A DNA stretch of 64,000 nt from Candidatus Dormibacteria bacterium (GCA_046703825.1 JBJKSO010000087.1:57503-121502); one strand, 5' to 3'. Positions 5,218-8,835 are shown, counted from the stretch's first letter. Notes: generated from the sequence alone by a model not told the origin. Made by a program: numbers and translations.

Positions 5218-6165
5218 GTGAGGGCCGTGACCATCCGCGAAGGCGAGGTGGTCTTCACCGACCAGGAAGACCCCGTCGCCGGCGACCGCCAGCTCCTGGT
5301 AAGGGTGGCCGCCGCAGGTCTGAACGGAGCGGACCTGATCCAGGTGCGGGGCGGCTACCCCCCGCCTCCCGGCATCCGAGCCGATATTCCCGGCCTGGAG
5401 CTGGCCGGCGAAGTGGTGTCAGTTGGGCGGATGGTCGAGCGCTTCGGGGTCGGAGACCAGGTGATGGCGCTCGCGGGCGGGGCAGCCCAAGCCGAGCTGG
5501 CGGTGGTTGACGAGGATTGCGCCTTGCCGGTACCGGACGGCCTTTCCATCGAGGCCGCCGGCGGCTTCTGCGAGACATTCTTCACGGCCTATGACGCCCT
5601 GTTCCGTCAGGCGGGACTGGCCATGGGTGAGCGCGTACTGGTCACCGGAGCCGCCGGCGGGGTCGGTACCGCCGCGGTCCAGCTGGTTCGGCTGGCGGGC
5701 GCGCTGCCTATCGCGTCGAGCCGCCACGCCGACCTGCTGCCCGAGCTGGCCCGACTTGGTGCCGCCGCGGCGCTCGGCCCCGATGAGGCCCTGGAGCAGG
5801 GTCCCTTCCAGGTGGTCCTGGAGCTGGTGGGAGCTCCGAGCCTTGGACCGGTGCTCCACCATCTCGCGGAGGGCGCCCGAATCGTGGTAGTGGGCATTGC
5901 TGCCGGGGCGCAGCTCCAGCTCGACCTGGGCCGGATGATGCGCAGGCGGGCCTCGCTGCGGGGTACCACCTTGCGCTCCCGTACCCGCTCGGAGAAGGGC
6001 GAGCTGACGCGCCAGATCGCCTGGCACCTGCTCCCCCTCCTTGGCAACGGTGACCTGAGCGTTCCTCTGGCGGCCTCCTATCCCATGGACCAGGCGCCTG
6101 CGGCCTACGCACGGTTCCGTGCTGGTGCGAAGTTGGGCAAAGTCATCCTCACCGCCCGGCCTTGA
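5218..6165 (+). CDS. Zn-dependent alcohol dehydrogenase / NADPH:quinone oxidoreductase family (MDR superfamily)
   Basis: There is a GroES-like N-terminus, a Rossmann motif VLVTGAAGGVGTAAVQL, and overall architecture of the quinone oxidoreductase family. The start is GTG. Confidence 0.85.
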   Translation: MRAVTIREGEVVFTDQEDPVAGDRQLLVRVAAAGLNGADLIQVRGGYPPPPGIRADIPGLELAGEVVSVGRMVERFGVGDQVMALAGGAAQAELAVVDEDCALPVPDGLSIEAAGGFCETFFTAYDALFRQAGLAMGERVLVTGAAGGVGTAAVQLVRLAGALPIASSRHADLLPELARLGAAAALGPDEALEQGPFQVVLELVGAPSLGPVLHHLAEGARIVVVGIAAGAQLQLDLGRMMRRRASLRGTTLRSRTRSEKGELTRQIAWHLLPLLGNGDLSVPLAASYPMDQAPAAYARFRAGAKLGKVILTARP

Positions 6166-6737
6166 GCGCGGCCGCTGAGCCCTCCGGCCCATCGCGCCGG
6201 TACCTGGCGCTCTTGGGCTTGCTCGCGGCAGAGCGGCTGGCCGAGCTTGCGGTCTCCAATCGACGCGAGCGCGGTCTGACCGACGTCAAGCCAGTCCCTA
6301 GGGGCTACCGGGTCATGGTCGTCACCCATGTCCTCCTCTTCCTTCTCCCGCCGCTTGAGCTGCGCCGGCTCGGCTGCGGGCGGCCGGGGCGGCGCTGGTG
6401 GCTTGGTCTGCTGCTCTCCGCCACTCTCCTTCGAATCTGGTGCATCCGCAGCCTGGGTCCCTGGTGGAACGTGCGCGCCTCAGTTTCCGGGCAGACCCGG
6501 GTGGTGGCCACTGGCCCCTACCGCTGGGTCCGGCACCCCAACTACCTAGCCGTGGCGGTGGAGATGGCCTCCGTCCCCATGGTCGGCGGAGCCTGGCGGT
6601 CGGCAGTCGGGCTCTCCATCGCCAACTCAGCGATCCTGCGTCAACGGATCCGAGCCGAGGAGAAGCTGCTCGACCAGCTACCCGGCTACCGAGAGGCCTT
6701 TGCCGGCCGGACGCGCTTCATTCCGGGCTTCTTCTGA
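6162..6737 (+). CDS. Isoprenylcysteine carboxyl methyltransferase (ICMT/PEMT) family membrane methyltransferase
   Basis: Multiple TM helices and the hallmark GPYRWVRHPNYLAV near the C-terminus. A TTG start overlaps the upstream stop by 4 bp, which suggests co-transcription with the quinone oxidoreductase. Confidence 0.75.
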   Translation: MSAAAEPSGPSRRYLALLGLLAAERLAELAVSNRRERGLTDVKPVPRGYRVMVVTHVLLFLLPPLELRRLGCGRPGRRWWLGLLLSATLLRIWCIRSLGPWWNVRASVSGQTRVVATGPYRWVRHPNYLAVAVEMASVPMVGGAWRSAVGLSIANSAILRQRIRAEEKLLDQLPGYREAFAGRTRFIPGFF

Positions 6738-7710
6738 GCTCGGCCAGTTCCACGGTCACCCCCGGGCCAAACGCCAGGCTGAGTCCCTGACCCCAGGCCG
6801 ACGGGGCAGCGGCCATGACGAAGAACAGCGACGCCGACGACAGGTTGCCGAAGCGAGCGAACACGTCCCGAGACACCACCAGGCCGCCCGGCGCCAGGCC
6901 CAGAGCAGACTCCACCGCGTCAAAGATGCGCGGGCCCCCGGCGTGCACCGCCAGAAAGTCGGATTCCGGCGCCCCGAACTCGCGCAGCACTTGGGGAAGC
7001 GCGCGCTCGATCAGCCGGGGCAGGCGGCGGTCGAGAACCGGATGAAAGCCGTCGTCACGAAGCTGGAAACCCAGGAGATCCTCGGAGTCGGCGATCAGGT
7101 GCGACTCGACCCGCTCGACCAACGGTCCCGGACCGGTGGCGCCCACGACAGCAGCCGACGCCCCATCGCCGAACACCAGCGCCGCCGCCAGGTTGTCGGC
7201 GGACCGATCGTCGGGATGGAAGCTGAGCGAGCACAGCTCGACACAAACCACCAGCGCTAGCCCGACTCGGCCCGAGTCCACCATGCGGTGAGCCAGCGCC
7301 AGCCCGGCGGCCCCGCCGGAGCAGCCGAGCTCGGTGATGGGCAGGCGGATCACCTGGGATTTGAGGGGCAGCGCTTTTGCCAGACGCACGTCCAGCGAAG
7401 GAGCCATATAACCAGTACACGACACCGAAATCACGACGTCCACCGCGTCGGAGGAAAGCCCCGCGTGTGCCAGCGCCTCCCGGGCGGCGACTTCGGCCAG
7501 CCGGGGCGCCTGCGCCGCGTAGACCGCCATCCGGGTCCCAAGGCTCCGGCGGCTGAACACGAGCTCCGCCGGGTCGACCGTGAACCGGCTGCCCAGGTGC
7601 ATCTCCTGGTGTCTGAGGTGTGGCCAGGTGAGGCCGAGGGCGGCCTGCGCCTGCTCGGGCGAGAGCCGGTGCTCTGGGAGGGCGGTGCCCAGCCCCAGGA
7701 TGCGGCTCAT
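6718..7710 (-). CDS. Type III polyketide synthase (chalcone/stilbene synthase family)
   Basis: Start MSRILGLGTALPEHRLSPEQ. The active-site Cys context is VISVSCTGYMAPSLD, and there is a C-terminal GCSGGAAGL...FGPG signature. The longer ORF reaches 7902, but I prefer the internal Met, which gives a 4 bp overlap with the upstream oxidoreductase stop. Confidence 0.85.
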   Translation of the reverse strand: MSRILGLGTALPEHRLSPEQAQAALGLTWPHLRHQEMHLGSRFTVDPAELVFSRRSLGTRMAVYAAQAPRLAEVAAREALAHAGLSSDAVDVVISVSCTGYMAPSLDVRLAKALPLKSQVIRLPITELGCSGGAAGLALAHRMVDSGRVGLALVVCVELCSLSFHPDDRSADNLAAALVFGDGASAAVVGATGPGPLVERVESHLIADSEDLLGFQLRDDGFHPVLDRRLPRLIERALPQVLREFGAPESDFLAVHAGGPRIFDAVESALGLAPGGLVVSRDVFARFGNLSSASLFFVMAAAPSAWGQGLSLAFGPGVTVELAELRRSPE

Positions 7711-8835
7711 CGCCGCATCCCCGCGACCACCGCCCAATCCGCGGCCGTAAGGCTCCGCAGGCGCCGCAGCCCCTGGCTGGCGTCCACCAAGGCCTGGAGG
7801 GTTTCGGGGTGGCGCCCGAGCGCCCGCAGCGAACGCGAGCTCTGCGCCGGTCGACCGCTCAACCACAGCGCCAACCGGGTCACCGCCTTTCGCCGGCGCC
7901 ACTGCTGGTCGAACCAGCTCGCGTAGCGGGCGGCGGCTCCGCCGGGGTCTCTCCTTAGCAAATCCGCCAGCACGCGCGCCTGTTCCAGGCCCGCCGCCAA
8001 GGCGTCGCCGGTGAGCGGATCCAGAAACCCGGCCGCGTCGCCGGCGAGGAAGATGCGCCCGCGGGCGACGGAGGTCCGGGCGATGCCGAATGGCCCCGCG
8101 CCCCTGAGCCGGCCCACCATAGGAGCTTGGGCTAAGCGCGGGTCGACTCGGGCCAGCGCTCGCCGATAGCTGCCGCTGACCGAGTTCCCGGGGTCGCGCA
8201 GAGCCCCCCTCAACCCAAGTACCGCGGCCAGCACCTCCCGATCCCCCACCGGGGCCACGTAGACCTCGGAGCGGCCTAGAAGGGTTACCTCCACGTCCCG
8301 GCTCAGAGGAAGCATCTCAAGGTGGCCCACCAGGGCATAGCGGCGGCGAGCCGATTCCCGGCCACGAGCCCAGGGCAGCGATCGCGCCAGGCGGGAGCGC
8401 ATCCCGTCGGCGAGCACGACCGACGCCGCGGTGAAGGTACCTGCACTGGTTTCTACCTCTACGCTCCGACCGAGGTCGGCGACTCCGCGCACGGTCACCC
8501 CGGTGCGGACCCCAGCTCGCGCCGCCAACAACGAGTCCAGGCGCAGGCGGCGGGTACCAAACCCCACCCCCTGCGAGAAGGAGGCGCGCGCCGGCTCGCC
8601 GCCCTCGAGGCGGTAGCTGACCCCCGCCAGCGCCGGAAACCCCTCGCGCGCGAGATCCAAACCCAGCTCGGCCAGCACACGGGCGCCGTTGGGCATCAGC
8701 CCCTCGCCACAGACCTTGTCGCGGGGAAAGCGGGAGGACTCGAGTACCAGCGCGTCCGGGACCCCCATCCCGATGGCCGCCCCCACCGGGCCCCCGCCGA
8801 CGACGATGAGCGAGGCGTCCACGACCAGGAACCTA
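7707..8835 (-). CDS. FAD-dependent oxidoreductase (geranylgeranyl-reductase / flavin monooxygenase-like)
   Basis: Dinucleotide-binding motif LIVVGGGPVGAAIG near the N-terminus and FLAGDAAGFLDPLTGDALAAG near the C-terminus. The ORF extends to 9008, but the ligase gene ends at 8848, so the start is probably a GTG/TTG near 8835. Confidence 0.7.

Follow-up and report, generated by a model that had tools for sequence, protein, structure and literature searches.

A candidate type III polyketide synthase, membrane methyltransferase and flavoprotein module for phenolic lipid or quinone synthesis in Dormibacterota

Organisation of the locus

We analysed a 64,000-nt stretch of DNA from Candidatus Dormibacteria bacterium (the window; G+C about 70%), with attention to a group of genes around a type III polyketide synthase (PKS) that a first-pass annotation had proposed to be an srsABC-like set for phenolic lipid or alkylquinone synthesis. 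Coordinates refer to the whole window, and families were called from open reading frames (ORFs) together with Pfam and NCBIfam matches, which confirmed the four genes claimed at this locus. On the plus strand, a gene for a quinone oxidoreductase (QOR) of the medium-chain dehydrogenase/reductase (MDR) family, zinc-free and probably PIG3-type (5218-6165; ADH_N, ADH_zinc_N and TIGR02824), is followed by the gene for a 191-aa membrane methyltransferase of the isoprenylcysteine carboxylmethyltransferase (ICMT) family, which is SrsB/BpsB-like (6162-6737; PF04140, 83.5 bits). The minus strand carries the gene for the 330-aa PKS (6718-7710; Pfam Chal_sti_synt_N and Chal_sti_synt_C) and, as the first gene of an FAD-PKS pair, that for a 371-aa FAD-dependent oxidoreductase of an SrsC-like/geranylgeranyl-reductase-like branch (7707-8822; PF01494). 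The FAD gene had earlier been placed at 7707-8835, which is out of frame and gives stop codons in the translation. The GTG at 8822 is the sole in-frame start after the stop of the upstream ligase gene (8848), and the 371-aa protein read from it matches the orthologues in length. This was the sole coordinate that had to be corrected.

The junctions between these genes were read directly. The stop of the FAD gene and the start of the PKS gene share ATGA at 7707-7710, and the stop of the QOR gene and the TTG start of the ICMT gene share TTGA at 6162-6165, thereby bearing out the two couplings proposed in the first-pass annotation. The PKS gene does converge on the ICMT gene, as had also been proposed; with the PKS stop at 6718-6720 and the ICMT stop at 6735-6737, the 3' ends have 20 nt in common (6718-6737). 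A promoter and terminator scan of 4900-10600 gave no site exceeding shuffle expectation.

Conservation of the three-gene core

Scanning a single genome for each GTDB species gave 80 loci, most of them labelled Dormibacterota. Partner genes were sought in the six-frame ORFs of these 80 loci with the window proteins as queries, and completeness was counted where a locus had 1.3 kb or more of flanking sequence on both sides. Two layouts were found. In type A, which is that of the window, the FAD gene leads into the PKS gene and the ICMT gene converges on both (FAD->PKS<-ICMT); the PKS is 47-61% identical to that of the window, and both partners were present in 42 of the 43 loci. The 3' ends overlap in 38/51 type A loci, with an overlap of exactly 20 nt in 28/51. 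In type B, the PKS gene leads into the ICMT gene with a 4-nt overlap, and a convergent FAD gene overlaps the latter by 14 nt at the 3' end. The type B PKS is 42-46% identical to the window PKS, and the set was complete in all 11 loci that could be counted; this type comprises L072, L075-L078, L080-L082, L084, L085, L087, L089 and L092 (for example, L076 5995-8790). The two types occur together in one metagenome-assembled genome (MAG), CTOTU41355, as L064 (type A) and L072 (type B). The FAD gene adjoins the PKS gene in 53 of the 54 adequately flanked Dormibacterota loci, and independent metagenome contigs repeat the type A layout. The trio of PKS, ICMT and flavoprotein is thus conserved with the PKS in relatives, a point on which the first-pass annotation had asked for a check.

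The three proteins show similar divergence from their type A orthologues (44-57% identity for the flavoprotein, 46-54% for ICMT and 51-63% for the PKS), which fits three genes inherited together. Every clearly taxon-named PKS homologue in this 51-63% range was from Dormibacterota, save a few with implausible labels. Records L025, L027, L044, L052 and L071 have a Dormibacterota-type cluster and are titled 'Micrarchaeaceae archaeon', 'Nitrosotalea sp.', 'Bacillota', 'Terriglobales' or 'Acidiferrales'; these oddly labelled records are probably mislabelled or chimeric bins.

The surroundings of the core vary. One type A sublineage (L008/L009, L047, L052, L056, L057 and L068) has an enlarged neighbourhood. 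Here the FAD gene is preceded by genes for a class I methyltransferase and a luciferase-like (F420-type) oxidoreductase, and the ICMT gene by one for a distinct MDR reductase, beyond which there is an acyl-CoA dehydrogenase gene. In about 11 loci overall an acyl-CoA dehydrogenase gene flanks the cluster. A different MDR reductase is encoded upstream of the ICMT gene in six loci, the products being 71-86% identical within the group and about 30% identical to the window QOR, while L008/L009 have a gene for an F420H2-dependent quinone reductase (PF04075) between the FAD and PKS genes. The quinone reductase and MDR reductase genes recruited beside the module in relatives, and the flanking acyl-CoA dehydrogenase gene, may be taken as independent hints of quinone chemistry.

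The synthase, the methyltransferase and the flavoprotein

The catalytic triad of the PKS, C130/H256/N289 (Cys-His-Asn), was invariant in 31 aligned family members, and the AlphaFold (AF2) model of the protein was a complete type III PKS fold (pLDDT 91.2, pTM 0.91). Foldseek with this model could not serve to discriminate between PKS11 and 1,3,6,8-tetrahydroxynaphthalene (THN) synthase (THNS), since the TM score was 0.92 to both M. tuberculosis PKS11 and S. coelicolor THNS. The sole PKS-specific NCBIfam match was DpgA, at 102.7 bits against a cut-off of 425, and this identity was rejected. Phe215 occupies the position of ArsB Trp281 and of Gly256 of chalcone synthase (CHS), the correspondence with ArsB-281 being drawn from the Trp that is common to PKS11 and SrsA-like PKSs. 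All 31 aligned type A members have this Phe; type B has Tyr or Phe, and one or the other of these residues was present at the column in all Dormibacterota PKSs compared. An aromatic residue at the equivalent position has been described as a 'steric wall' that favours aldol (resorcinol) closure (PMC6274091). In one homologue, P0111, the otherwise conserved Cys98 (the position of CHS Thr132 and THNS Cys106) is replaced by Gly and there are other deviations (GEQGC); this copy may have diverged in function.

In the ICMT protein, 4-5 hydrophobic segments are seen when a 17-residue window and a threshold of 1.0 are used, and none with a 19-residue window and a threshold of 1.5; the segments fit a lipid substrate. 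A search of PDB sequences with this protein gave one weak match only. It is 40% identical, over nearly its full length, to the methyltransferase encoded after the PKS11-like PKS of Streptomyces sp. NBC_01237 (L004; the PKS scores 434 bits to 4JAO). In the same operon, the product of the FAD gene that follows the methyltransferase gene is 39% identical to the window flavoprotein over 254 aa, and the PKS is 36% identical to the window PKS over its full length. A sister Streptomyces operon (L099) is annotated in RefSeq as UbiA prenyltransferase, PKS, isoprenylcysteine carboxylmethyltransferase family protein and FAD-dependent monooxygenase. Each of the three window proteins is therefore homologous to a member of a Streptomyces operon of the srsABC/pkqABC type, and to this extent the srsABC-like enzyme set of the first-pass annotation stands. 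Its statement that srsB is ICMT-like also agrees with the literature, where srsC is a monooxygenase gene (PMC6669644).

The flavoprotein has the invariant motifs GxGxxG, FPRDKxCGEG, ADGxRS and GDAAGFxDPxTG, and scores 86 bits, below the cut-off, on TIGR02032 (geranylgeranyl reductase superfamily). When a profile of the family was compared with PDB, the phenol/pyrrole halogenases Bmp2, CmlS, ChlB4 and PltA came first (96-116 bits), followed by squalene monooxygenase, archaeal geranylgeranyl reductase and rifampin monooxygenase. Flavin-dependent halogenases need a catalytic Lys and a WxWxIP motif. Identity as a halogenase was rejected because the sole Lys among the invariant or near-invariant columns is K36 in FPRDKxCGEG, and there is no conserved Trp.

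Proposed pathway and alternative explanations

We consider it probable that the locus is the Dormibacterota version of the module of type III PKS, ICMT-type methyltransferase and SrsC-type flavoprotein known from srsABC/pkqABC. As judged by homology and gene linkage, the module is related to a known pathway but differs from it in gene arrangement, and it is conserved across the Dormibacterota genomes that were sampled. Its likely product, on balance, is a phenolic lipid or quinone that is membrane-bound, O-methylated and hydroxylated. Following the homologies, the 330-aa PKS would be primed by a fatty acyl thioester, extend it with malonyl-CoA and, aided by Phe215, cyclise the chain to an alkyl-resorcinol-type phenolic lipid. 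The integral-membrane ICMT-family enzyme would O-methylate this lipid, and the flavoprotein would hydroxylate the ring to give a hydroquinone or quinone ('polyketide quinone'). The three genes would be kept linked in two paralogous layouts, FAD->PKS<-ICMT in type A and PKS->ICMT<-FAD in type B.

Several points weigh against this reading. Trees were built by neighbour joining from Kimura distances over 327 columns with 150-200 bootstraps and limited taxon sampling, and their references were PDB alignments (PKS11, THNS, PKS18, CylI, CHS, stilbene synthase and Ectocarpus PKS1) and annotated plasmid loci; the comparison with srs-type enzymes ran through uncharacterised Streptomyces orthologues and PDB entries, not through characterised SrsA/B/C, PkqA/B/C, ArsB/C, Gcs or BpsA. 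In these trees the Dormibacterota PKSs form a single clade (bootstrap 96-98), which is sister to the RppA/THNS clade (91-99.5) and lies outside the SrsA/PKS10/PKS11 clade. The next clade out (76-87) holds PKS11, two Streptomyces PKSs of PKS-ICMT-FAD operons, CylI, the rhizobial and Brevibacillus PKS-ICMT enzymes and HR40. SrsA itself has been placed with PKS10 and PKS11 in one clade (PMC8086630). Thus, the PKS did not prove to be an alkylresorcinol/alkylpyrone synthase of the SrsA/PKS11 type, as the srsABC parallel had implied. In the PDB sequence search, THNS came first with 155 bits, ahead of plant CHS (about 120), PKS11 (116) and PKS18 (114). Scoring with group hidden Markov models (HMMs) was equivocal between RppA and SrsA affinity (212 vs 199 bits), and was set aside as an arbiter, the most diverse HMM winning, which is probably an artefact of breadth. 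The THNS signature consists of T132C, T194C, T197C and S338A together with Tyr at CHS-256 (G256Y) (PMC6274091). At these positions the window PKS has C, C, S, S and F, so that it carries the small-residue substitution at two sites out of four and Phe in place of Tyr; it has T132C and T194C in common with THNS and an aromatic residue at the starter-selection position of RppA. The Trp expected at ArsB-281 is replaced by Phe, which is still a bulky aromatic residue. The flavoprotein lies in a geranylgeranyl-reductase/halogenase-like branch (GDAAG motif, invariant Cys38), and its putative role as a hydroxylase is taken only from reports for SrsC.

Much of this would suit an RppA-like enzyme, in which a malonyl-CoA starter would lead to THN or a related product, the flavoprotein would convert it to a flaviolin-type naphthoquinone and the methyltransferase would O-methylate it. 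In favour of such an enzyme are the sister position of the two clades, THNS as top sequence match and equal-best structural match in PDB, the SCTG[FY]M motif (T132C), T194C and HAGGPRI in common, and the aromatic residue at the position of RppA Tyr224, which governs the choice of malonyl-CoA as starter (PMC6274091). However, the RppA clade is monophyletic (bootstrap 100) without any Dormibacterota sequence, so the PKS is not nested inside it, and the PKS lacks T197C and S338A (Ser at both) as well as Tyr224. Of the question whether the PKS groups with RppA/THNS, which the first-pass annotation had raised, only part is thus answered in the affirmative: it is sister to RppA and outside the SrsA/PKS11 clade, but not within RppA. 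HAGGPRI was rejected as a synapomorphy with RppA, being found also in the PKSs of Sphingomonadales and HR40 and absent from type B. The stem of the RppA clade is long (0.57) and ICMT-linked PKSs stand on either side of it, so the simplest reading is that ICMT-linked phenolic-lipid synthesis would be ancestral and RppA a derived lineage. The sampled RppA-type loci never pair with an ICMT gene and an SrsC-like FAD gene, none of the THN-tailoring partners sought (P450 of the CYP158 type, cupin of the MomA type, aminotransferase) was found in the 12 kb around the PKS gene, and a lipid is a more fitting substrate for an integral-membrane methyltransferase than a small polar naphthol would be. We regard RppA-like chemistry as unlikely. 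On trees and residues together, the PKS is neither of the SrsA/PKS11 type nor an RppA, and is assigned to a previously uncharacterised clade beside RppA.

It is also unlikely, in our estimate, that the product is a lipid other than a quinone, with alkylpyrones or alkylresorcinols that are O-methylated only, as in bpsAB and rhizobial pairs, and a flavoprotein acting as a reductase of, for example, an alkyl chain or an isoprenoid. The PKS-ICMT pairs of Phyllobacterium and Brevibacillus have no adjacent FAD gene in the stretch examined, PKS11, the other equal-best structural match, makes alkylpyrones, and the flavoprotein gives a score with MenJ, 3OZ2 and the superfamily model for geranylgeranyl reductase and has, in KxCGEG, an invariant Cys like that of geranylgeranyl reductases. 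Yet the FAD gene is next to the PKS gene in all but one of the adequately flanked Dormibacterota loci, the flavoprotein is 36-39% identical to the FAD gene product of srs-type operons, in which SrsC reportedly hydroxylates, some relatives recruited quinone reductase genes into the cluster, and the bulky aromatic residue at the cyclisation-specificity position speaks for resorcinol rather than pyrone. That the four genes are chance neighbours without a common pathway is hardly credible. In favour of chance are the secondary position of the QOR, the lack of conservation of the ligase gene just upstream of the FAD gene, and the placement of the ICMT gene on the strand opposite the PKS gene. For the three-gene core, however, chance is already contradicted by linkage in 42/43 and 11/11 loci of two paralogous layouts with differing surroundings, by the linkage of the same three families in Actinomycetota and by the ATGA coupling of the FAD and PKS genes.

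The quinone oxidoreductase and the older neighbourhood

The QOR scored 263.1 bits on TIGR02824 (PIG3), for which the cut-off is 296.8, in an alignment that spans residues 1-312. It carries GLELAG where zinc alcohol dehydrogenases have GHE, and is on this account of the zinc-free QOR type. The label 'Zn-ADH' in the first-pass annotation thus holds at the level of the family (MDR; ADH_N, ADH_zinc_N) and not for zinc. Homologues of 55-61% identity are present in Dormibacteria and many Actinomycetota, and many of those at 55-60% have been named PIG3-family or NADPH:quinone reductase by JGI.

An orthologue of the QOR was found beside the cluster in none of the 80 related loci. In two Dormibacteria relatives (L103 and L105), a 59% identical orthologue and a DedA-HTH gene are 1-2.7 kb apart and have no PKS gene close by, and this DedA-HTH gene is 60% identical to window 10894-12117. 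In the window, the QOR and DedA-HTH genes are kept apart by the ICMT, PKS, FAD and ligase genes (the whole at 5218-12117). The ligase gene (8848-10374, minus strand; ATP-dependent DNA ligase, 755 bits on NF002868, which exceeds the cut-off) precedes the FAD gene on one strand at a distance of 25 nt, and no terminator was predicted between the two; its adjacency to the FAD gene is missing from relatives, in which a cystathionine-beta-synthase-like gene lies upstream instead. Since the QOR gene of relatives adjoins DedA-HTH without a PKS, it appears that the module arrived in an older QOR-DedA neighbourhood along with the ligase gene, and the TTGA junction between the QOR and ICMT genes appears to be secondary. 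The QOR and ICMT genes may be co-transcribed. The QOR was rejected as a cluster member, with its orthologues by DedA-HTH and the MDR reductase that fills the same slot in six loci only distantly similar to it; it is probably a chance neighbour and no ancestral member of the module. As extra support for quinone chemistry, the use to which the first-pass annotation had put it, it adds little.

Other features of the window

Upstream of the QOR gene, two genes for secreted proteins (1619-2290 and 2296-4296, plus strand) precede a gene for an archaeal/SipW-type signal peptidase I (4241-5179, plus strand; TIGR02228, E 2.8e-7; SMSP motif). The product of 2296-4296 has a LamG/concanavalin-like domain, and both secreted proteins share the N-terminal motif GGFSAxVVN...SGT[IL]LL. 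The region 1619-5179 looks like an operon of SipW with its cognate substrates. The Logan gene call favours an overlapping frame at 4312-5208, of which the translation is rich in Arg, Gly and Pro and has no family match; this frame looks spurious.

A second gene for a PEMT/ICMT-family methyltransferase is present at 40631-41194 (minus strand; PF04191 47 bits, PF04140 36 bits). Its product is 19% identical to the ICMT protein of the cluster, and it adjoins a glyoxalase-like gene (41181-41645) and an MFS_3 transporter gene (41668-43116), with no PKS gene nearby. From about 44000 to 52200 there is a block of lower G+C (0.61-0.63 vs about 0.69), which ends at tRNA-Thr(CGT) (52112-52186, minus strand). 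It has genes for SBP_bac_5 (44216-46027), a 958-aa molybdopterin oxidoreductase (46782-49658) and a fused 4Fe-4S/NrfD membrane subunit (49642-51183), and may be an acquired, quinol-linked molybdoenzyme island.

Significance

To our knowledge, no route to non-isoprenoid 'polyketide quinones' is known other than modules of type III PKS, methyltransferase and flavoprotein. In actinobacteria, such quinones are alternate electron carriers in hypoxia and dormancy, and also envelope lipids that affect antibiotic tolerance; the polyketide quinone PkQ is an electron carrier in hypoxic mycobacterial biofilms and Streptomyces spores. Dormibacterota are an uncultured phylum known for persistence in nutrient-poor soils, and no relevant paper came up in literature searches for Dormibacterota together with type III PKS, polyketide or menaquinone. 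The rearranged, duplicated and widely conserved version described here extends the module to a phylum without cultured members, and its three-gene core of about 2.7 kb is a clonable target for learning about the membrane redox lipids of Dormibacterota. A PKS clade between RppA and the alkylresorcinol/alkylpyrone synthases would be useful for the evolution of starter choice and cyclisation mode. The adjacent quinone reductase is not to be counted as evidence for the cluster. As a speculative extension, to which we give a low probability, the module would be near-core in Dormibacterota, in up to two paralogous copies, and supply a polyketide quinone as respiratory or alternate membrane electron carrier, and RppA/THN synthases would have arisen from an ancestor among the phenolic-lipid synthases linked to ICMT, an ancestor whose closest surviving relatives would be the Dormibacterota enzymes.

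Comparison with known systems

Outside the three-gene core, the QOR resembles quinone oxidoreductases of the PIG3/zeta-crystallin type in its MDR fold and in the lack of GHE, although its score is below the curated cut-off. For the core itself, the hidABC genes of the cyanobacterial hierridins and the related operon of Planctomycetota (Paludisphaera, L014) offer one parallel, in that the FAD gene is upstream of the PKS gene and overlaps it at start and stop, as in the window. Where PKSs of this group have been assayed, they form alkylresorcinols (PMC10896814). However, the Paludisphaera methyltransferase carries the generic annotation 'methyltransferase domain-containing protein', whereas that of the window is of the ICMT type, the Paludisphaera FAD protein is only 25% identical to the window flavoprotein, and the PKSs of the group fall in another, weakly supported grouping with PKS18. 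Membership in a hid-type operon was rejected on these grounds, the coupling of FAD to PKS gene being the only feature in common. The bpsAB genes of Bacillus subtilis and the rhizobial pairs, like the window, combine a type III PKS with an ICMT-family methyltransferase; unlike the window, they are co-directional, have no adjacent flavoprotein gene in the stretch examined and have a PKS of another clade.

RppA/THNS (PDB 1U0M) forms the clade nearest to the window PKS in the trees, and the two have T132C, T194C, an aromatic residue at CHS-256 and HAGGPRI in common, although they are only about 34% identical and, in the window PKS, Phe replaces Tyr224 and both T197C and S338A are lacking. The RppA-type plasmid loci (L005, L015 and L017) have P450, cupin or aminotransferase genes as partners, in contrast to the ICMT and SrsC-like FAD genes of the window.

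The closest parallel in composition is with srsABC of Streptomyces griseus and pkqABC of Mycobacterium smegmatis and Streptomyces sp. MNU77, which have the same three families, including an ICMT-type methyltransferase and an SrsC-type flavoprotein, in tight linkage. The products of these systems are methylated alkylquinones derived from alkylresorcinols. In this known module the methyltransferase and the hydroxylase turn an alkylresorcinol into an alkyl benzoquinone, and the one made by pkq serves as an alternate electron carrier (PMC9927152). The parallel does not extend to gene order, which in the window is not that of srsA-B-C: the srsABC/pkqABC genes are co-directional (PKS, methyltransferase, FAD), whereas in the window the FAD and PKS genes are on the minus strand, with a convergent ICMT gene on the plus strand and overlapping 3' ends. 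The PKSs of srsABC/pkqABC have about 350 aa and Trp at ArsB-281, in contrast to the window PKS with its 330 aa and Phe, which is outside their clade. The known modules are actinobacterial and that of the window is from an uncultured phylum, in which the type B paralogue retains the srs-like order of PKS and ICMT genes, with the FAD gene convergent.

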